The notes beneath the pieces are model-generated. The model saw only the letters and a list, made by a program, of their open reading frames with translations. It was not told the DNA's origin and searched no databases. From Reclinomonas americana ATCC 50394 (lineage: Eukaryota), in NCBI GenBank assembly GCA_048213135.1, contig PS015013.1, forward strand, positions 233,218 to 266,114: a stretch of 32,897 nt of DNA. The letters are read 5' to 3'. The position numbers were made by a program, and so were the translations under genes. The first letter of the stretch is position 1. Each line of letters begins with the position of its first letter. Shown piece after piece: positions 752 through 32,897 of the stretch.

Positions 752-3435
752 TCATATTCTGGGTGGCGAGGTGGCCTCACGGAGCGGCACTCGAGCCTCC
801 TCCGGTGAGCTGAGCATGCGGGGTGTGGGTGGTGGCGACGGCGATCGCGGTGGCGTCTGCTGTGCTCGTCTCTGTCGCCGCTGTCGACGCGGCTTCTTGG
901 TGGGCGGCCGTCGTCGACATCTGCAGCATGCGAATGGCAGCCACACGTCACCGTCGTGGAAGAAGCACGTGTACACGAACAAGCCGAGGGCGCACACGGG
1001 CAGGAGTATGGTGGCCAGCATGAGTGGCGATATTCCACCACCACTGCCCCTGGTGGCGCCTGCATCACTGCCACTGCCACTGGAGGCCAGTACGGCACAC
1101 CACTGCACGACTACGGGGTACGAGGACTGCGCTTGGTATAGGAGACAAGTCAGTTGTCGTTCAGTCGCGGTGGCCTCGAAGCTCACGCAACAGTCACCAC
1201 GGAGGCGTAGCCGGGGTCGCACTCGCATGCCAACGTGGTGTTGGCTGCCGGGCGGGAGTGTGGCGCGGTGCAGTTTGCACGGATGCCGGTGGCGGCGGCT
1301 GCGGCCGAGTCGATGATCAAAGTGTCACTGTCGCTTCCGCTTCCGCTTGCTCCCCCCGTGTTGCCACTGGTCGTGTTGGAGGTGACTGCGCGTTGCACAC
1401 ACGAGTTCAGCGCCGCCTGTCGCACTTGGTCGCCGGTACACGACACTGTTGGTTCGCACTGGCCGCTCAGCGGGTTGTAGTAGTCACGCGCTCCATTGTA
1501 CTTGGCGACGCAGCCGACGGCAGTCGGTCGGCACGACGCCGTCGCGGAGTCGAATTGCTGGTCCACCGTGCACGCATCCTGGCAGTAGAGACGACCCTGA
1601 ACAGTGACTGCACGCCGAGGTGCGACGCAGGTGGTGCTGTTGGTGACCAGTGCCGACGCGGTCTCCTGAAACCAGCCCACAGTGGAGAAGTCGACGCGAC
1701 CCGTGGCTGCGACCACCCCGCGCTGTCTCACGGTGACTGCGCAGTATCCTGTGGCCTGCAGCACTTGCTGTGCGCGAGAAGAACGTGAGCAAGGAAAACT
1801 CTTTCATCCACACACAATCGCAACACACCTTCGCGGTGACGACAAACAAGAAGCGACGGGTGCTATTGGCTGCCACCGACTGCTCCACTGGTGGTGACAC
1901 GTCGAGCGGCTGCACGCACACAGAAGTTGGAATGGAATATGCACGTCAGAACACGCACAGAGCACGCACCGTGCAAGTGGAGTTGCGCTGCAGGCAGCAG
2001 TCAGAGACGGTCGTGGCAAATGCCGCGGCGGTGGTGCCAATGTTTCTGACATCGACCGCCACGAATGCATCTGTAGCACCGGCCACGAACGGTAGCAGGG
2101 AGGCAGCCGCGATGCTTGGTCGCCCGTCGACCTGACGCACACTGATCGACGAGGTGCTGAGCCGCAGAATCACGTCCACGCTCCCGGCAGCGCACTTTAC
2201 TGCGACTTGTCCATCCGAAGCACTGTGTCGAGTATCGTGTGAGTTCTTTTCTGTTGTTGTAGAGAGCGAACCCATCTCTGGCAGAACGCACGTGGTGCTG
2301 TCGGTGCAGCCTGTGAGTGCCGCCCCACTGGCCAATGTTGCAGCTCGAAACGGCGAAAACTGATCGTACAGTGAGGCATTCGGCAACTGGGTGGGATCCA
2401 CGCTGGGCGCACGACAAGAGAACGCTGCCGACCAGGCGGCATCGCTCACGCCGATCTGGTTCTTGGCCGTACCGATGCGCGACTTGGGCACAAGGAACGA
2501 CGACGAAACGTCCATGTCACGCACGAGCGTGTAATCAATGGCCACCTGTCGGAGGTCTTGTACTCGCTGCATGATGGCGTTGGCGGAGGCCTGTGTCGCG
2601 AGTTAGGCATTGCGATGTGGACAAACTGAGAGAGAGAGAGAGAGGCCAGGGGAGGGTCACACAACTGTTAGCACATTGCGCACCAAAGCCTCGCGGGTCG
2701 ACTCGGTGAGTGTGGTGGTATACGATTGCGCGGTGCCACTCTGCGACGCAGTCACTGCGATGGAGTAACGCAGTGTCGGCGCTGACAACTCGAACGCCAA
2801 GTACGTGGTGCTGTTCCGCGCGACATCGTACACGCTAATGTCGGTACCGTCGGAGTGGACACAGCACACCGACGCCGTCGGACACGTGAACGACGATAAG
2901 GCGACTCGCTGTCGGCGTCGAGTGTAGGCATTGCGCAGTGTGGTGGGTGGAGAACTCAGTCCGTACACTGTTGTTTGGACACGGTCAAGGATTTCGAAGA
3001 AAAGAGGATCGAGCTTCCTCACTCACCGACGCTCCAGTCTTGAAGCGCAACAGTGACAGCAAGCGGCTCTGTCAACGACCACATGGTGGCACCACCGGCG
3101 GCGTCCGGAATCAACTCGCCTGCGACACACACAGTTAGTCGCGCGCACAGAAACGAGTCGTGCTCCGTCGGCGCTCACTTGGATCCACGCTGAAGGAGAG
3201 AGTCGAGTCAGAGGCCGCATTTAACGTCGCCGCCACGATCAGCGTAGGAGAGCAACCCGTGCTGCGTGTTGAAGATCGATGATGATGAGCAGATGCGAAC
3301 GCGAACACAACACACGCGCAGTCAGTCGCCACACCTCCCGCTGGCACACGGCACGACTTGAAGCGATACGGCCTCGCCTAGTGTAGCCACACAGGCGAGA
3401 AGGATGATCAACGCTGCCGCAACTCGCAGGCGCAT
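752..3435 (-). CDS. HAP2: HAP2/GCS1-like class II fusexin (gamete fusogen family), divergent; about 9 exons; signal peptide, domains I-III, Cys-rich stalk, TM, basic tail
   Basis: ATG at 3435 gives signal peptide MRLRVAAALIILLACVATLGEA. Spliced segments follow the HAP2 order: CSPTLIVAATL; LTEPLAVTVALQDWSVVYGL; YLAFELSAPTLRYSIAVT; FLVPKSRIGTAKNQIGVSDAAW…CRAP (cf. HAP2 V.K…CNKIGVSY.AF…C..P); and Ig-like domain III SVDVILRLSTSSI…GRPSI…FVA…VAVDVRNIGTTAAAFATTVSDC…QSVAANSTRRFLFVV…CAVTVRQRG…VDFST. TM LMLATILLPVCALGLFVYTCFF; TGA at 752-754. Confidence 0.8.
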
Positions 3436-3655: not shown

Positions 3656-6126
3656 ATGGGCCAGTGCTGCGGTGCACGCGAACGACCGCGTGCGTCGTCG
3701 CACTCGGAGCCAGTGCAGCTGCCTCCGCGGTTTCCCTCAATGACTGATTTCGCGGCGGTGCCTGAGATACCCGGTGACGGCAATCGCCAGTCTCGCGGAT
3801 CGCGACCCGCCGCCAAGCCCGGCTCCGTGCCGCCACCCTCCGTGCCCGATTCGTTGCTCCGTCGGCGATCGTCGGGAACTGCAGCGTCGGATGCCGCCGA
3901 TCCAGAAATCACTGGCGACGGAGATGGGAGCACGTCGCAGCTCGACTCGGAGCACGCGTCGCAAAGCAGCCACCCATCGGCAGTGTCGCAGCGTATCCTC
4001 GGCGTCCCGCTTCCCGAGTCGCTCATCTGCGACTACTCTGTTCATCAGTTTTGTATCTTTTCCACCGTATGCATGCATTGCTGGTGGTGGCTCATTGCTC
4101 CCGCGCGCGCGCGCGCGCACAGTTCCATGTTTGCGGTCCCGCGATTCCCGTTGGCCATCCTTCGCGAACTCCACGAGCGCAGTTGCGTGCGCAGTGTTCT
4201 CGTCGTCGAGGGAGCAGCAAGATGCTCACACACTTGCCACGCATTAGTGTTTGCCGATCCTCGCATGCCGTGGGTGCCGCCTGCGGGGCGTTCCGTCGAG
4301 CTGTCGGAGCTGCGCTCGTTGGTGAACTCGCTGCCGAACAGCGGCGACCGGTGTCTCTGGGGTCCCTTTATGGCAGCCTGCAACGACCAAATGTTGATCG
4401 ACTTGCTCATTATCTGGCTGGTATGACTCTCCTCGTTGTTTATTTGTTGCATGCACTCACTCACTCACTCGCTTGTGTACGCACTGTGCACCAGAACGAG
4501 TTGCCGACGCCTTTGTTTGGCTCGTTGGAGCGGCTAGCCTGGGACCCGAACGGAGTTGAGCCGCCGTCTGATGCGGCTCTGGCACTATTCTTGCGAGAAC
4601 AGCTGACGCCGCCGGCGCTGAGTATGCTGTGCCATCTTGCGCGTTGCGTGGCGTGTGTGTGTCCTCTCCCCGCAGACCGCGTCTTGCTTGTCTCTCATCT
4701 CGTGGCGCAGATATCACATCGCTCGCCGCCCACTCGCGATTGCGCAGCCACCCTTCGCATCAGGCGGCCAGCGTCGCCGTCGCCGAGTGGTTTGTCGCCG
4801 TCACGCACACCGTCGCCTGCTTAACAGTCCCCCTCACCCTCTTCTCTGTGTGTGTGCGCGCGCGCGTCTTGTGCGCNNNNNNNNNNNNNNNNNNNNNNNN
4901 NNNNNNNNNNNNNNNNNNNNNNNNNNNNNNNNNNNNNNNNNNNNNNNNNNNNNNNNNNNNNNNNNNNNNNNNNNNNNNNNNNNNNNNNNNNNNNNNNNNN
5001 NNNNNNNNNNNNNNNNNNNNNNNNNNNNNNNNNNNNNNNNNNNNNNNNNNNNNNNNNNNNNNNNNNNNNNNNNNNNNNNNNNNNNNNNNNNNNNNNNNNN
5101 NNNNNNNNNNNNNNNNNNNNNNNNNNNNNNNNNNNNNNNNNNNNNNNNNNNNNNNNNNNNNNNNNNNNNNNNNNNNNNNNNNNNNNNNNNNNNNNNNNNN
5201 NNNNNNNNNNNNNNNNNNNNNNNNNNNNNNNNNNNNNNNNNNNNNNNNNNNNNNNNNNNNNNNNNNNNNNNNNNNNNNNNNNNNNNNNNNNNNNNNNNNN
5301 NNNNNNNNNNNNNNNNNNNNNNNNNNNNNNNNNNNNNNNNNNNNNNNNNNNNNNNNNNNNNNNNNNNNNNNNNNNNNNNNNNNNNNNNNNNNNNNNNNNN
5401 NNNNNNNNNNNNNNNNNNNNNNNNNNNNNNNNNNNNNNNNNNNNNNNNNNNNNNNNNNNNNNNNNNNNNNNNNNNNNNNNNNNNNNNNNNNNNNNNNNNN
5501 NNNNNNNNNNNNNNNNNNNNNNNNNNNNNNNNNNNNNNNNNNNNNNNNNNNNNNNNNNNNNNNNNNNNNNNNNNNNNNNNNNNNNNNNNNNNNNNNNNNN
5601 NNNNNNNNNNNNNNNNNNNNNNNNNNNNNNNNNNNNNNNNNNNNNNNNNNNNNNNNNNNNNNNNNNNNNNNNNNNNNNNNNNNNNNNNNNNNNNNNNNNN
5701 NNNNNNNNNNNNNNNNNNNNNNNNAGCATTGGAGTGTCGCTCTTCCGGGCGCCGACAACGGTGATCTCGTTGCACAGCGCAGCCACCCGCTGCACCATGT
5801 CGCTGCTTCTCAATGTCGAGCGATTGATGCCGACTGCGTACACGAGTGTTCTTCATCGCATGCCGCCCCTGCCTGGCTTCCATAGCCACGAGGGCGAAAT
5901 TGCACACAGCGGCCAAGGTCTGTTCATCCTCCTCCGCGCGTCGCACGCACAAACTGCAGTCTGACACGAGCACACAGAGGACGCCGTACTCGCCGCCAGC
6001 CGGTCGTCTGCCTCGTCACCCGCCTCCTCGGCTGCGTCGCCAGTGCACCACCATGTGGCACTCGAAGATGTCGAAGTAAGCTTCTCTAACCCACTGCAGT
6101 CCATGGTACCTCCGTCATTCTCTTGA
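3656..6126 (+). CDS. RhoGAP-domain-like protein with N-terminal MGxCC acylation motif (multi-exon, spans an N gap)
   Basis: ccaccATGG start giving MGQCCG. RhoGAP-like motifs in order: ILGVPLPE (cf. FGVPL), VPRFPLAILRELHE, LLIIWL|NELPTPLF (cf. LLK.FLRELPEPL), QLTPPALSMLCHL. After the gap come SIGVSLFRAP and MSLLLNVERLM (cf. FGPTLLRP…LI.N…IF). Last exon EDAVLAASR…PPSFS with TGA at 6124-6126. Confidence 0.6.
4877..5724. other. Assembly gap (N run). Other gaps: 6292-6311, 11794-11813, 12521-13218, 25734-25810, 26445-26464, 30177-30196, 31777-32602.
   Basis: Runs of N. Confidence 1.
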
Positions 6127-6231: not shown

Positions 6232-9200
6232 TCACTTCTTGCCCTTCTTGCCGCCCTTGCCCTTCTTACCACCCTTCTTCCCCTTCTTGCCNNNNNNNNN
6301 NNNNNNNNNNNGCCACCGTCCTCGTCGACCTCAATCTTCGGCAGCTTCGGGTAGGTTGGCACGAGATCGTTGAACGCCTGCGCAATGCCGATAAGAGCAA
6401 GTGAGTGCTCTCATCTATAGCACACGCACACGCACACAGAGGACGTGGTGTTTACGGACCTTGAATGCCTCGGCATTGTGCTGATACATGTAGTGCTTGT
6501 TCATGCGCGCCAGCTCCAGCAGGAACTCTTCGTCGTGCAGCGGAATGTCTTCCATCTGTCGAGACAGGTCAGCGACGATTACAGTGTGTGCTGTGGTGCG
6601 AGTGAAGGGCACCCGCACGCAACTCGAGCCAAGCGCTTGGTGGTGAGAACTCGGCGAATCGCCCGTACCACCTGTCATGACAGAGAAAGAGTGTGAGCTC
6701 CTCTGGCTCATGAAAATGTATCGAGTCATATCTGCACGGACGCAACTCCGCCACTGCTGAACCCGTGCGTAATGTATGCAAACACTTGCGGATGCAACGC
6801 GTGCGGCATGGGCACGCCGCACTTGACAGCCGTCTCGCGCCACAGCTTCTGCCGCGTCTGATATTGCGGCAGCCCGAGATACAGATGTGTGCCGAAGCTG
6901 TCCACCAGCGGTTTCTCGTTCCGTGCACGATGACCAGGGTAGGAAGTCAGCACGTAATCAACAAGTGCGCACGAGGGGATTACGATGCAGCAACATATCT
7001 TCCACTTGCGAGGTGTTGCCAATGACCATCACTCGCGGAATGCGCTTGACCTCCGTGAGATGGTGATCCTCTCCCGACAGGGACGACATGGACACCTTGT
7101 CGCGAGACTGTCAGCTCATCCTTGCCTTTGGTAGGTGGAGACACACATACACACCTCCTTGCCGAGTGCGTCCCACAAGAACTTCTTGATGCGACTCGCT
7201 GGCAACGACGGCACATCCGACGGCACACCGTCTGCGCCCACCAGCGACTCTGTGGGCTCTGGGGCCGCAGACTTGCCCTTCTTTCCCTTCTTGCCTTTCT
7301 TCTTGCCCTGCGAAGAATAGAACGCGTGTCATGCATGGGCGAGGTGGCGGGTGAGGGACAGGATGGCGTGGCGCGCAACTCCTGCATCCACAACGACCTG
7401 ATGCACTTGATCAATGTACACCACAGCCGGTACGTCGAGATGTGCGGCCAGCTGCGCATCTGTGAGTTTCTCTCTCTTTCTCACGGAAAAGCTCTTCTCC
7501 ATCCACACACACCTTGAAGACGGCGTCGGTCATGTACTTGGTGGCGGCCTCCGAGTCGGCCAGCTTGCCGTAAATGTTGGACGGACTAAAGTCGAAGAAC
7601 AAGGCATTGGTGTCGTTGGCGGCCGCGTATGAGAGCATCGTCTTCCCGCTGCCACTGGGACCGTACAGCAGCACGCTCTTGGCTGCCGGGGCATACAGCA
7701 TGTCGCAACCGAGCGGATACACCACCTTCTCCACAAACAGCTGTCGCACCTGAGCCAAACTCGGCTCAGGTAGCGGCTTTTGCGGTGGCGGCGCTTCACC
7801 CTCGGCCAGACGCTGCGGCTTCAGAGCCTCGTCGACTGCCACCTTCTCGGCCAGACCGGCCAAGTTGTTGAAGTCGCAGATAAAGTCACTGACACTCACA
7901 GAGGGGATCTGCGCACACAATGCATTCACACTGATCAGCTTGTGCGGCGCGAGTACAGCATTGAACGGCAGTGCCACCGACGCACTCGACGAAGGAGTCC
8001 GAGTGAGAACATTTCCGTGAGAAGCTTGCGATCCTCGTCGTCTTGTTCGCGCATGGTCTTTAGCACTGTGCGAGAATCAGAGTGAGTATCTCGCAAGACT
8101 TCAGTCATCGGCGTCGAACAAGCTCTCACCAACAGGAGCCTCCTCCTTGACCTTCTTGCCCTTGGCGCCCTTCTTGCCCTTCTTCCTGCACACGTGGCGA
8201 GAGCGCATGTCAACACCGATGTAATGATATGTGTGGAAGCAGCAGCACATGTTACGCACCCTTTGGCACCCTTGCCTTTCTTTCTGCACCACAGAAGAGA
8301 TCACACGCACACACGTACATGAGTGACATCACATGGCATCAAGCCTTCCGCACACTTGAGTACACCAGTACCACACCCTTTCTTTCCGCTGGCGCCCGGA
8401 TCGCCCACCAGTTGAGCCTTGAGGTTCTCCATCTCCATTTTCAGCAGCAGATCAAGATCGGCGTTGGCCTACACGCTCGCCCTCCGTCAGTTCTCACTTC
8501 ATGCCGGTGACAAGTTAGGTGTGCACCCACTCACCTCGGCCTGCACTTCCTCCTTGGCCCTCTGTCGCACAATGTCCAGCCGGTACTTGTGTTCGTGCTC
8601 CGCCATGTCCGACTCGGCAGCCTGCCACTTGCTAATGTACTGCTGCAGGCTGTCGCTGATGACTCCAGTGACAGCTGGGTTCAACACTTTCTCCTCCGGT
8701 GGCCCCTGCACTGCGAGTCAGACGCGCACCGCTGGCACCTGGCGATCACGAAAACGCACCTCATCGTCGCCGCCCTTGTCCTTCTTGCCCTTGCCTTTCT
8801 TGCCCTTCTTGCCCTTTTTGCCCTTCTCGCCCTTGCCTTTCTTGCCCTTTTTCCCCTTGCCACCCTTCTTGCCCTTCTTGCCTCCCTCTTCCTCGTCGTC
8901 TGCGCGGCGACGAGAGATGATGGCACGTGTTGGCGAGTGATGATGAGAATGCACGACAAGAGCAACAAACAGTCGACATACCTGGGTCGCCCTTCTGGTA
9001 CTTTTCCGGATGCTCCAGCCGATCCAGCACGTACATGTATGTGCTGTTGGGTACGTCGCTCGGCGCGACAGGAGCGCCTTCGGCGGGAGGTGGCGGCCCT
9101 TCAAACTCGAGAAACGTACACACACGCCAGTCAAGGACAACCACCAGCGAACATGAGATTGACAAAGAGAGGAGGAAAAAGCACACAAAAGGATATTCTC

Positions 9201-10588
9201 CAGTCGCACGCCAGTTGCTGATGATCTTTTCGACGAATTCCCGCGACCTCTCCTCCGTGTACTCCGACTTCATCTGCTCACGCACTCTGCAGCACGTACG
9301 GGAGCAGTCAGCGTGAAATCATACGTACTCGCACAACATCAAGTCGGGTGCACACAACTCTCGTTTGATCTGCGTGATGGTCATCTGCAGCTCCTTCTCG
9401 TACTGTTGCTGGAGATTCTTCTTGCGTGCGCTCACGTCATTGACATGCGTACGCAGGGCTGTCAGCTTGTCGCGAGGTGGAACAAGACCCAAGAACACCA
9501 GGTCGTCCTGCTGGAACTGGCGAGCGGCCTTGCGAGCTCGGTGCATGCGCCATCTGCCGCACAGCGAGTACGGTGAGAACGAGCTGGGAGCGCCTCGCTC
9601 CTGCCTACCGCACACATGACGCACACTGACTGAATCTTGGTGGCCGCTGCATCAATGTCGACATCGAAACGACCGGCAGTGAATGAGTGATGACTCTGCC
9701 CGGCATCCTCCTCGGTGATGCGTCGAATGATGCGCGCACGCTGACGACCCTGGCGTCCACGCTCGTTCCGTTGCAAAATGAGCACCGCCTCCTGCACAGA
9801 AATCGCGCGCTCGGTGTACACGTCGCGCAGCTGGAACCCGTCCGTCGGCATCGCCTGCGTCAGTGGACCCGAATACTGTGCAGCCACGGCATCGAGCCAC
9901 GCGCGCTTTTCAGAGTACACATTGCGCCCCTCACGGAAGTACCGCGGAACGGGCAGGTGCAGCGCGATGGGATCGACTTGCAAGTCCACCAGATGATCGT
10001 CGAAATTGATGTAGGCGCCCTTATGCTCCACCAGACTCTGCGCCCCGAGCAAAACCTCATCAGTCACACCGCTGCGCTCCCCCCAACCTTTCAGTAACAC
10101 ACGCACGTCTTTGAGTTCCACTGTGCGATACATCACCGCCTCGAGCAGGCGCCGCACAAAGGCGCGCTTCTGCGGTTGCATGATCTGTGCGAGGCCGAGA
10201 CATCAGTATTGTGGCAGTTCTCTCTCCCTCTCTCCCTCTCTCCCTTACACACACCTCATCATGGGCGCGCTCCAGTCGTCGCAAGAGGCCAATGTAGACC
10301 AAGTACTGACGCTCGCGCAGTGGCAGCTGCACCTTGGGATCGGGATTCTGCCCCACAGAACCCATGATCAGCCACCACGCACACTCTCCCTCTCTCTCCC
10401 TCCCTCTCTCCGCCACACACCGCATACAGTGCCGCGACCTCGGGCACCGCCGGCTGACTGCCCAACTCCCAGATGGCCCGACGAAGTTCTTCCTCCGCAG
10501 ATCTGTGCGTGTCAGTTGAGTTCCACGCACACACACACACACTACACCATCTGCGTGCGCAGGCAGGCCAACGCAACGCGCTCGACAT
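6232..10588 (-). CDS. IQCA1: Dynein regulatory complex subunit 11 / IQ and AAA domain-containing protein (IQCA1/DRC11), multi-exon
   Basis: N-terminal signature YIGLLRRLERAHDE|IMQPQKRAFVRRLLEAVMYRTVELK…FDDHLVDLQVDP.ALHLPVPRYF. IQ-like motifs AVLILQRNERGRQGRQRA and AATKIQ, KKGK-rich linkers, and AAA Walker A SVLLYGPSGSGKTML…ALFFDFSPSNIYGK. Ends …GKKGKK with TGA at 6232-6234. Start ATG at 10588 is inferred. Confidence 0.9.
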
Positions 10589-10709: not shown

Positions 10710-25104
<14,395 letters not shown>

Positions 25105-29202: not shown

Positions 29203-30132
29203 TCAGTCTGCGGGTACCTCCACACGCGGCTTGTTCGGATTGTTGGCCAGCAACCAGTTGGCGAGCCACGCCTGCACGGAAGAAAGTAAGCGACAGCGCA
29301 CGCTCCAAGACCTACAGTGAGGTGACTGACCACCGGCTGTGCGGGCTTCTCCTTGCACAGCTCCGTGAGCGCCTGTCGCAAAATCGTCGACAGCCTCTCC
29401 TCCATGACCTCACGCGCCTCCTTGGGTCCCAACAGCGGCACACTCACTGCAACGCAACGCACCAGTGAGTATGACACAGAGAGGAGAAGAGAAGCAGAAC
29501 AAGAACACACACCCGAGGGGAAAAAGTACTTGATCTCGCGTCTTGCGCTCTCGCTGCTGTCGCTTCCGTGCACCGCATTGTACGTCGTGTCCGTGCCGTA
29601 CTTGGCACGCAGTCTTTGGCGCCGCACATGTGAGCGCCTTGAGCAAGAGAGCAAGAGAACAAGAGTGTATGCGCAACGAGTTGGGATGGTCTCGACGCGC
29701 CACCTCGACATTCGTCGGTCCCATCAACGCGCGCCAGTCCTTGATCGCGTTCTCCTTGGCCAGCACCAGCACACGCACCGGTCCACTCGTCATAAAGTCC
29801 ATCAGAGTCTCATAGAAACGCTTGCCCTGTTCAACAGCGTTGAGATGAAGAGTAACAAAATGAGTGTATATCAAGAAGGGCACCTCATGCTCGGCGTAAA
29901 AGCCAGCAGCGCGCTCTCGTGTGAGCTGCAGTCTTTGCTCGGAGACAATGACAAAGCCGGCCTCGCGCAAGTCATCGCGAATGGCCTCCTCGTAGCCTGC
30001 GCGCACTGCGTCTGGCTTGATAATCCCAAAGGTCTTTTCCACGTTGGCGAATGATTGCACCTGTGAGTGAGCAGAGAGAGAATGAGAGAGAGAGCAGTGA
30101 GCAGAACAGGAGTGAGGAGCACGCACCGACAT
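29203..30132 (-). CDS. NME5: Nucleoside diphosphate kinase with C-terminal Dpy-30 domain (NME5/RSP23-type radial spoke NDK)
   Basis: MS|VQSFANVEKTFGIIKPDAV…FYAEHE|GKRFYETLMDFMTSGP…AIKDWRALMGPTN…LRAKYGTDTTYNAVHGSDSSESARREIKYFFP, then Dpy-30 motif LSTILRQALTELCKEKPAQPV|AWLANWLLANNPNKP. TGA at 29203-29205. Confidence 0.9.
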
Positions 30133-30479
30133 GTTGGGTAACGGGGGGGGGGGGGGGGGGGGGGTGCGACGGCGGTNNNNNNNNNNNNNNNNNNNNTCGG
30201 CACCCAGTGGCCAGTGGCGTGCGGCCTGCAATAACCAACGGTGAGACACTGCAGTGAAGCAGGATGCAAAGATCGACTCACCAACACCGGCACACTACCA
30301 CTACTCCAGCGGGGTGCGCGCACGTGTGCGGTCCACACGTGTCGGAGCTCGGCAACCAAGGCCGACGGCATGTTGTGGTCGTCGTGGTGGTACTGCTTGT
30401 CGGCGTCACCACGGCGTCGGGCACTGGTACCTCTACGACGTCGGCCACCTCGCCTGCAACTGGCGGCAGCATGCATGGA

Positions 30480-31376: not shown

Positions 31377-32897
31377 TCACGATTTCGCGTCCAGACCCAG
31401 CACAGCATCACACATGGCAAGAAGATTGCGCGCTTCGTTGACACAATAGTCGCACAAGTCGCGCTCACTCTCGCACAGTGCGCGCTCTTGCAGACTGAAC
31501 ACAGTCGACTGGAACTCTTCCGCCCTGGCCTTCCTCCTGCGGAGTTCAGCGACAAGCGGGTCGTTGGCAGGAAGCTCCTCTCTCTCCCTGCAGCGGCTCT
31601 CGACTTGTTCCAAGACGCGCACAAATCTGTCGTGCGCCTCGGGCATCGTGACCTGCAGCAGCTCGTAATCAGCAGCGCTCAGACCAGCGACCAAGCCTGG
31701 CGCCACAGCTGGCGTTGATCCTGCGGCTGCAGTGGGGGGCAGAGTAGCAGCAGACAAAGCTGGCGCTGCAGCTGGCNNNNNNNNNNNNNNNNNNNNNNNN
31801 NNNNNNNNNNNNNNNNNNNNNNNNNNNNNNNNNNNNNNNNNNNNNNNNNNNNNNNNNNNNNNNNNNNNNNNNNNNNNNNNNNNNNNNNNNNNNNNNNNNN
31901 NNNNNNNNNNNNNNNNNNNNNNNNNNNNNNNNNNNNNNNNNNNNNNNNNNNNNNNNNNNNNNNNNNNNNNNNNNNNNNNNNNNNNNNNNNNNNNNNNNNN
32001 NNNNNNNNNNNNNNNNNNNNNNNNNNNNNNNNNNNNNNNNNNNNNNNNNNNNNNNNNNNNNNNNNNNNNNNNNNNNNNNNNNNNNNNNNNNNNNNNNNNN
32101 NNNNNNNNNNNNNNNNNNNNNNNNNNNNNNNNNNNNNNNNNNNNNNNNNNNNNNNNNNNNNNNNNNNNNNNNNNNNNNNNNNNNNNNNNNNNNNNNNNNN
32201 NNNNNNNNNNNNNNNNNNNNNNNNNNNNNNNNNNNNNNNNNNNNNNNNNNNNNNNNNNNNNNNNNNNNNNNNNNNNNNNNNNNNNNNNNNNNNNNNNNNN
32301 NNNNNNNNNNNNNNNNNNNNNNNNNNNNNNNNNNNNNNNNNNNNNNNNNNNNNNNNNNNNNNNNNNNNNNNNNNNNNNNNNNNNNNNNNNNNNNNNNNNN
32401 NNNNNNNNNNNNNNNNNNNNNNNNNNNNNNNNNNNNNNNNNNNNNNNNNNNNNNNNNNNNNNNNNNNNNNNNNNNNNNNNNNNNNNNNNNNNNNNNNNNN
32501 NNNNNNNNNNNNNNNNNNNNNNNNNNNNNNNNNNNNNNNNNNNNNNNNNNNNNNNNNNNNNNNNNNNNNNNNNNNNNNNNNNNNNNNNNNNNNNNNNNNN
32601 NNGGCGGCGGCGGTGGTGGTGGTGGTGGTGGTGGTGGTTGCTGATCTGGTGGAGTGGCAGCTGCAGAAAGTGTGTGGAAGGAGGCGCATGAGCGAGGGTT
32701 ATGATACGCAGTGGGAGAAGTGGCGAGCGCCAGTTGTAAGTGTAACTTGCAGCAGTGATCGGAAGCACCAGTGGTTGAAGCAGCCACTGCTCTGGAAGCG
32801 GAGGAAGTGGAGGAAGTGGTGCAACGTGCTGCAACACAGATGTGGGTGGTGCGCTGATACAAAGGAGAACACCAGGGACGGAGTTGATCTCACCTCC
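31377..32897 (-). CDS. 3' part of a Pro/Ala-rich protein ending in a small helical domain (GAT-like is only a guess); spans an N gap and is truncated by the window
   Basis: Intron GAG|GTGAGA…TTGCAG near 32830-32893, then an exon ending in poly-Pro. After the gap, PAAAPALS…EAHDRFVRVLEQVESRC…LVAELRRRKARAEEFQSTVFSLQERAL…DAKS with TGA at 31377-31379. Confidence 0.5.
   Translation of the reverse strand, partial: GGEINSVPGVLLCISAPPTSVLQHVAPLPPLPPLPEQWLLQPLVLPITAASYTYNWRSPLLPLRIITLAHAPPSTHFLQLPLHQISNHHHHHHHHRRRXXXXXXXXXXXXXXXXXXXXXXXXXXXXXXXXXXXXXXXXXXXXXXXXXXXXXXXXXXXXXXXXXXXXXXXXXXXXXXXXXXXXXXXXXXXXXXXXXXXXXXXXXXXXXXXXXXXXXXXXXXXXXXXXXXXXXXXXXXXXXXXXXXXXXXXXXXXXXXXXXXXXXXXXXXXXXXXXXXXXXXXXXXXXXXXXXXXXXXXXXXXXXXXXXXXXXXXXXXXXXXXXXXXXXXXXXXXXXXXXXXXXXXXXXXXXXXXXXXXXXXXXXXXXXXXXXXXXPAAAPALSAATLPPTAAAGSTPAVAPGLVAGLSAADYELLQVTMPEAHDRFVRVLEQVESRCREREELPANDPLVAELRRRKARAEEFQSTVFSLQERALCESERDLCDYCVNEARNLLAMCDAVLGLDAKS

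Follow-up and report, generated by a model that had tools for sequence, protein, structure and literature searches.

The stretch examined here comprises 32,897 nucleotides (nt) of Reclinomonas americana ATCC 50394 (contig PS015013.1 of assembly GCA_048213135.1, forward-strand positions 233,218 to 266,114; the whole stretch is called the window below and is numbered from its first letter). On its minus strand, at 752-3435, it carries a gene for a predicted relative of the gamete fusogen HAP2/GCS1 with a very short domain II tip. The original prediction, made from the sequence alone, had singled out 2410-2960 as a region in which the fusion loop of a HAP2-like protein was shortened and its hallmark cysteines were missing. 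The gene spanning this region was modelled from the raw sequence and consisted of eight exons running from ATG to stop, with a frame that was open throughout and encoded 741 amino acids (aa). The seven introns measured 59-74 nt, and each began with GT and ended with AG. No N occurred within 752-3435, and tblastn detected a single copy of the gene in the window.

Exon 1 (3335-3435) opened with the ATG at 3435-3433, encoded an N-terminus resembling a signal peptide (MRLRVAAALIILLACVATLGEA..., judged by the hydrophobicity of the translation) and ended at a GT donor. Exon 2 (3179-3261, AG/GT borders) contained the start of domain I, a C-x6-C motif followed by a beta strand, and aligned with the N-terminal C...C..K region of three relatives described below (P0007, P0010 and P0012). 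Exon 3 (3027-3119, AG/GT borders) ended in ..DWSV, which was joined to VYGL, the sequence VVYGL thus arising across the junction with exon 4. Exon 4 (2663-2967) encoded strands b, c and d of domain II together with the next two strands, and the entire tip lay inside it; the minus-strand translation of 2663-2965 read YGLSSPPTTLRNAYTRRRQRVALSSFTCPTASVCCVHSDGTDISVYDVARNSTTYLAFEL... It was followed by intron 4 (2591-2662, 72 nt, GT..AG), which contained an in-frame TGA and an in-frame TAA. By its translation, exon 5 (1970-2590) covered the remainder of domain II, strands of domain I and the start of domain III, and exon 6 (1829-1909) was assigned to strands of domain III from its AG/GT borders and the family alignment. 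Exon 7 (1201-1767) completed domain III and continued into a stem rich in Cys (..C..KY.G.R.(Y/F)N...G.CEP..C..), and matched residues 325-448 of the relative P0006 in tblastn (E 9e-20). Its junction with exon 8 (donor GTGGTG) was the least certain border of the model. Exon 8 (752-1126) supplied the transmembrane helix, a Cys/basic tail and the stop codon.

The transmembrane helix (ISPLMLATILLPVCALGLFVYTCFF, residues 649-673, encoded at 959-1033) was the single hydrophobic membrane-spanning stretch, and it was followed by the tail CCRCRRR..KKPRRQRRQRR. The same Cys/basic juxtamembrane pattern was seen in the alignment with the relatives, and HAP2 tails likewise have a Cys-rich, polybasic cytoplasmic start. 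The ectodomain, from residue 23 to the anchor, contained 25 Cys. As read from the translation and the alignment, the protein crosses the membrane once, in type I orientation, and its cytoplasmic part begins with a Cys-rich, polybasic stretch. The gene product is very probably a full-length, membrane-anchored class II ("fusexin") protein, a conclusion that draws in part on modelled structure.

In class II proteins the link joining strand c to strand d carries the fusion loop, and in HAP2 this connection is long (about 40-60 residues) and braced by disulfides. The segment between VYGL and YLAFEL in the window protein had three Cys (C-x5-CC), no third Cys after the CC pair and no His-Cys-Leu. The tip peptide quoted in the original prediction was thus present exactly, within exon 4, and the exon 5 translation contained KNQIG as well as FSCRAP followed by SVDP rather than GSCL, as had also been stated. 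The canonical HAP2 motifs used for this comparison (CCxC, HCLR, CNKIG and GSCL) are those given by the original prediction. The segment from strand b to strand d was free of introns and lay wholly within exon 4. Since the tip sits in one open exon, and since intron 4, the one intron read through, contains two in-frame stops, a hidden exon or a retained intron cannot supply a loop of 40-60 aa.

An AlphaFold model of the 101 residues of exon 4, built with the family alignment, had a mean predicted local distance difference test (pLDDT) score of 75.5, with values of 85-91 at residues 11-50. Strand b occupied exon 4 residues 8-21 and was followed by a bc connection of 10 residues modelled as coil (ALSSFTCPTA, residues 22-31, 2873-2902). 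This connection held the first tip Cys and the only hydrophobic residues of the window protein's tip (A, L and F). Strand c (SVCCV) occupied residues 32-36, and a second coil of five polar residues, HSDGT (residues 37-41, 2843-2857), formed the cd connection leading to strand d at residues 42-57. The HSDGT turn therefore stands in the place of the long fusion-loop segment of HAP2. A model of the relative P0007 showed a similar arrangement, with a strand at 82-113, a coil of eight residues at 114-121, a strand at 122-126 (TCCSE), a turn of two residues at 127-128 and a strand at 129-147.

Relatives were sought with phmmer, using exon 5 as the query against 1.84 billion representative proteins (E<=1e-3). 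Seventeen matches were found, among them six long proteins of 482-839 aa, and pairwise identity between the window protein and its relatives was 24-28%. The named sources were Balamuthia mandrillaris in Amoebozoa (P0006, hypothetical protein KAL6066032.1) and transcripts of the trebouxiophyte green alga Stichococcus sp. RCC1054 (P0021 and P0016). A profile of the six long relatives, from which the window protein had been left out, matched the spliced window protein in one stretch over residues 9-630 (327 bits, E 2e-92 at Z=1.84e9). Searches for homologues in a word index, with either exon 5 (directed at longer proteins) or the alignment of six members as the query, recovered the query alone; a metagenome scan with exon 5 gave no close relative, and the ESM Atlas gave no usable match to P0007.

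Several of the matches were unusual in form. The best-scoring exon 5 match, P0003 (5,434 aa, E 5.8e-18), aligned in nine separate stretches, the best of them covering query residues 138-191, which suggests a giant protein with a repeated domain similar to this part of exon 5. In P0015, P0016 and P0021 the C-terminal half was Pro-rich and Cys-poor, in place of the Cys-rich stem. Several of the sequences P0021, P0016, P0015, P0005 and P0004 appeared to be N-terminally truncated.

The short tip was common to the family. Measured from the RNAY motif to the point where strand d ends, the segment was 41-52 aa long in all seven members compared (the window protein and the six relatives that cover the region). 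Tip Cys counts in these seven were 3, 3, 3, 3, 1, 4 and 3, with three Cys in four of the six relatives, and the motif C-x5-6-CC was present in four of the seven. The cd link, 2-5 residues long in the two modelled members, was also short in the alignment for most of the others. The best-conserved block of the family lay outside this segment and resembled the ij loop (FLVP..N.IG..W/F...C....YDQF..FR). In the window protein it read FLVP..KNQIGVSDAAW..FSC..YDQFSPFR (2345-2497, exon 5; alignment of seven sequences). It contained one Cys in five of the seven members, two in P0009 and four in the green-algal P0021.

A HAP2 gene could also show a shortened tip if, in a single genome, sequence had recently been deleted, an exon overlooked or part of the tip lost in an assembly gap, or if the gene were becoming a pseudogene, and the window does belong to a draft assembly with runs of N (e.g. 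4877-5724). However, the gene itself is free of N and has its tip in a single open exon. Its introns are regular, its 741-aa frame is open and no other locus for it was found in the window. An equally short segment was moreover present in six out of six independent relatives, which match the window protein along its whole length. We consider decay or a faulty gene model to be highly improbable. Neither a splice form restoring the loop nor pseudogenisation was found, and a pseudogene or mis-assembly was rejected on the intact frame and on a tip common to the family. The original prediction had proposed remodelling rather than decay, and this held: the gene is intact and a short, Cys-poor tip is kept across very distant eukaryotes, including an amoebozoan and a green alga. 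What was described as a collapsed HAP2 tip is indeed a short tip; it is not a collapse within canonical HAP2, however, but a trait of a separate, divergent HAP2-like family.

The overall fold was examined in the complete relative P0007 (691 aa), for which an AlphaFold model was obtained from an alignment of 20 rows. The mean pLDDT was 71.2, and blocks of ten residues in the ectodomain were mostly at 72-92; there were no long ectodomain helices, and the stem region was of low confidence. When this model was compared with the PDB using Foldseek, the eight best chains were all HAP2, and every HAP2 chain ranked above Fsx1 and the viral chains. The matches included HAP2 from Cyanidioschyzon (7s0k, E 1.1e-18), Chlamydomonas (6dbs, 6e18 and 5mf1, E 5e-18 to 2e-16) and Arabidopsis (5ow3, E 6.5e-17), followed by archaeal Fsx1 (7p4l, E 7.8e-16), various entries of hantavirus and alphavirus Gc/E1 (E 1e-13 to 1e-11) and EFF-1 (4ojd, E 6.2e-11). 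VIA-align superposed the model on 7s0k with Z 17.3 over 354 residues (rmsd 10.2, 19% identity). The Trypanosoma cruzi HAP2 domain II fragment was matched with Z 12.0 over 168 aligned residues (rmsd 2.6 A), domain II spanning 87-306 in the P0007 model and 99-382 in T. cruzi HAP2. Domain III of Plasmodium berghei HAP2 gave Z 11.7. A three-copy homotrimer prediction of P0007 residues 40-325, run without an alignment, left its own fold uncertain.

Because the window protein matches the family profile over its full length, the fold can be carried over to it from P0007. Class II fold, stem and membrane anchor were thus recovered in the P0007 model and, by homology, in the window protein. On the predicted structures, the family belongs to the class II fusexins and has the HAP2s as its nearest known relatives. 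The sequence link to HAP2 came from Pfam: when PF10699 (HAP2-GCS1) was compared with 20 family sequences, two of them matched; P0010 scored 43.8 bits, above the cut-off of 27.4, over profile positions 332-501 of 515, and P0007 scored 20.2 bits, below it.

A class II protein in a eukaryotic genome could also be an endogenised viral glycoprotein. Viral Gc and E1 share the fold, as the Foldseek matches to the PDB show, and the family has a patchy distribution across an amoeba, a green alga and the organism of the window. However, HAP2 chains outrank all viral chains, and predicted viral structures (BFVD) were weaker matches, the best having an E of 9.7e-14. The sole Pfam link of the family is HAP2-GCS1 and the gene has seven introns of the spliceosomal type. 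A scan of viral contigs with P0007, sensitive to close relatives only, gave no match. A viral origin is accordingly most improbable, and it was rejected because HAP2 stands above every viral chain in the structure ranking.

Some results weigh against placing the window protein with HAP2, or against its having a working tip, and they should be set beside the evidence above. Scanned singly, the translations of five window exons gave no match to PF10699 at E<=1, and neither exon 5 nor the six-member family profile had a sequence match in the PDB at E<=10. The exon 4 model had no Foldseek match in the PDB at E<=1e-3, although a fragment of 101 residues is too small to be informative. The link to HAP2 rests on the Pfam match of one relative and on a structure predicted from a shallow alignment of 20 rows. 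As to the tip, the HSDGT turn is without any hydrophobic residue, and the bc loop has its hydrophobic residues at positions that differ between members; Balamuthia P0006 has none there, and has instead a longer cd stretch with FFPLI. The salt bridge of HAP2, reported by Fedry et al. (PMC6089408) to be essential in Arabidopsis, is absent from the window protein as judged from its sequence, since Thr replaces the Glu of strand b and the cd turn has no Arg.

The same authors describe seven invariant Cys, a Glu in strand b and an Arg in the cd loop across the b-c-d region of 38 HAP2s (Fedry et al. 2018, PMC6089408), with the Glu and the Arg 46-59 residues apart in the three proteins reported there as solved. 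In the family alignment, a Glu follows NAY, NSY or HAQ in three of the six relatives (P0006, P0007 and P0009), with P0021 a fourth when the motif is read directly. The cd loop is reduced, as the original prediction had it, but the tip is not entirely bare, since the bc loop begins with hydrophobic residues in the window protein (V-A-L..F) and in several relatives (M-P-G-L-L-F in P0010, M-L-F-G-M in P0012). Where the bc connection begins, some class II proteins, as well as T. cruzi HAP2, are described as having a hotspot of membrane contact (PMC6089408). Comparison of P0006 with the other members gives the impression that the family varies in whether the bc or the cd loop holds the hydrophobic patch. 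In addition, strand d carries an N-x-T sequon, separated from the cd turn by a few residues, in six of the seven members (the window protein, P0006, P0007, P0009, P0010 and P0021); in the window protein it is N-S-T, at 2801-2809. A glycan on this predicted site, conserved as the sequon is, could shield the tip or serve in recognition.

These features could also belong to a non-fusogenic paralogue of HAP2, in which the scaffold was kept and membrane insertion was lost, and which would take part in adhesion or recognition, or would regulate or chaperone a canonical HAP2 encoded by another locus of the genome. The polar cd turn, the loss of the Cys/Glu/Arg scaffold described as invariant in HAP2 tips (PMC6089408) and the sequon that could shield the tip are all in keeping with such a role. 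Ordinary HAP2 has been reported in other trebouxiophytes, namely Chlorella vulgaris (PMC6972661) and Auxenochlorella (PMC12636532), so that in Stichococcus the family member may be an additional gene, a paralogue. A second, "HAP2-like" gene reported from Leishmania is co-regulated with HAP2 (PMC8794473). On the other hand, the family keeps a stem, a membrane anchor and a Cys/polybasic tail, which are required of a fusogen but have no obvious use in an adhesin. By the account in PMC9259645, moreover, Fsx1 and EFF-1 bring about fusion with tips that are short or non-hydrophobic. Loss of fusogenic function is possible, but we doubt it.

We favour the explanation that the family is conserved, that it has diverged very far from HAP2/GCS1, to which it stands as a sister group or as a group of paralogues, and that its tip would be minimal by design. 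The short polar turn between strands c and d would replace the disulfide-braced fusion-loop segment of HAP2, and C-x5-6-CC would replace the seven-Cys scaffold in four of the seven members. The protein would act at the cell surface in the merger or apposition of cell membranes, probably those of gametes. It would most likely engage the partner membrane either by means of the bc loop, with its few hydrophobic residues, or by operating from both membranes, as the loop-poor fusexins EFF-1 and Fsx1 do. The structural and family part of this explanation, namely an intact gene, membership of the family, a HAP2 fold and a short tip, is very likely to be correct as far as predicted structures allow. 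Taken as a whole, the explanation appears to us moderately probable. A working fusogen is plausible because Fsx1, with a cd loop of six residues, and EFF-1 offer precedents, and the retention of stem, anchor and Cys/polybasic tail across the family fits a protein that pulls two membranes together. Even so, a fusogen mechanism, whether bilateral or by insertion of the bc loop, is a tentative proposal by analogy to which we would give slightly less than an even chance.

A bolder proposal is that the family represents a second, ancient lineage of eukaryotic fusexins, distinct from canonical HAP2, present across supergroups (Amoebozoa, green algae and the flagellate of the window) and fusing cells without a cd fusion loop, either bilaterally or by a bc-loop patch. 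We think this unlikely. If true, the family could be the missing fusogen of lineages or cell types in which HAP2 is undetected, or the long-sought fusogen of the partner side.

The remainder of the window contained several other genes, all on the minus strand. A gene with an AAA ATPase domain and an IQ-like region lay at 7,414-10,202, with best relatives, Tribonema minus among them, that were 32-35% identical. Between about 14,600 and 24,800 open reading frames followed one another in a long series and abounded in GGA(I/L/V) motifs; by their sequence they probably belong to a large multi-exon gene for a surface protein, or to several such genes. The sole matching frame of this run, 16004-16873, had a Pfam match to the polymorphic-membrane-protein repeats of Chlamydia (E 4.6e-9) and a right-handed beta-helix. 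A gene with a nucleoside-diphosphate-kinase domain (E 3.5e-26) was found at 29,413-30,294. Scans of the window for Rfam families and transfer RNAs gave no match. The draft sequence had about 55-60% G+C and frequent (GT)n, (GA)n and (CA)n microsatellites. Runs of N were located at 4877-5724, about 12,520-13,220 and about 31,780-32,600, with several more of about 21-24 N, none of them in the gene studied here.

Among gamete fusogens HAP2 is, to our knowledge, alone in being broadly conserved, and the fusion loops with their disulfide bracing are regarded both as the part that does its work and as a target for vaccines. A family with the fold, anchor and tail of HAP2 and without its loop would mean either that the scaffold works with a minimal tip, as Fsx1 suggests, or that a surface protein derived from HAP2 was kept for another step of mating. 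We found no description of a loop-less HAP2-like family of eukaryotes in the open-access literature. Surveys based on Pfam miss the family almost entirely, a point of relevance to reports in which some sexual or cell-fusing protists are said to lack HAP2. For Amoebozoa, a preprint names "extreme sequence divergence" as one possible reason for the apparent absence of HAP2 (10.64898/2026.07.05.736552).

Among known systems, second "HAP2-like" genes of other protists offer a precedent, for example Leishmania LmjF.36.3860, described as a divergent HAP2-related gene that occurs beside HAP2 and is co-expressed with it (PMC8794473). The nematode somatic fusogens EFF-1 and AFF-1 (4OJD) share the class II fold with the family, but the structural match is far weaker than that to HAP2 and there is no sequence link. 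EFF-1 is not known to have hydrophobic fusion loops. It is also reported to act from both membranes (PMC9259645).

Archaeal Fsx1 (7P4L) is closer to the family, having the class II fold (Z 11.3 in addition to the Foldseek match) and a very short cd loop. This loop, of six residues, is described as the fusion loop of Fsx1 and as required for fusion, and Fsx1 is reported to fuse bilaterally, being active only if both cells carry it, as is EFF-1 (Moi et al. 2022, PMC9259645). However, Fsx1 ranks below every HAP2 chain for the P0007 model, and its description includes one more globular domain, the fourth, together with a six-helix bundle and 1-4 transmembrane segments (PMC9259645). For the window protein a single transmembrane helix and a stem rich in Cys were read from the sequence, and an extra domain is conceivable, the stem region of the P0007 model being of low confidence.

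HAP2/GCS1 itself (PF10699; 7S0K, 5MF1, 6DBS, 6E18, 5OW3 and 5OW4) differs from the family in domain II. The cd connection is 2-5 residues long in the two models, in contrast to the long fusion-loop segment of HAP2, and the window tip has three Cys against the seven reported for HAP2 (PMC6089408). The Glu of strand b and the Arg of the cd loop are not kept in the window protein, and domain II of the family, measured in the P0007 model, is about 60 residues shorter than that of T. cruzi HAP2. The five window exons scanned also gave no match to PF10699, whose gathering score of 27.4 bits is passed by one relative, P0010. The three-domain class II fold was recovered in P0007, and the window protein shares with HAP2 a type I membrane topology in which a stem leads to a single transmembrane helix and then to a Cys/polybasic tail.

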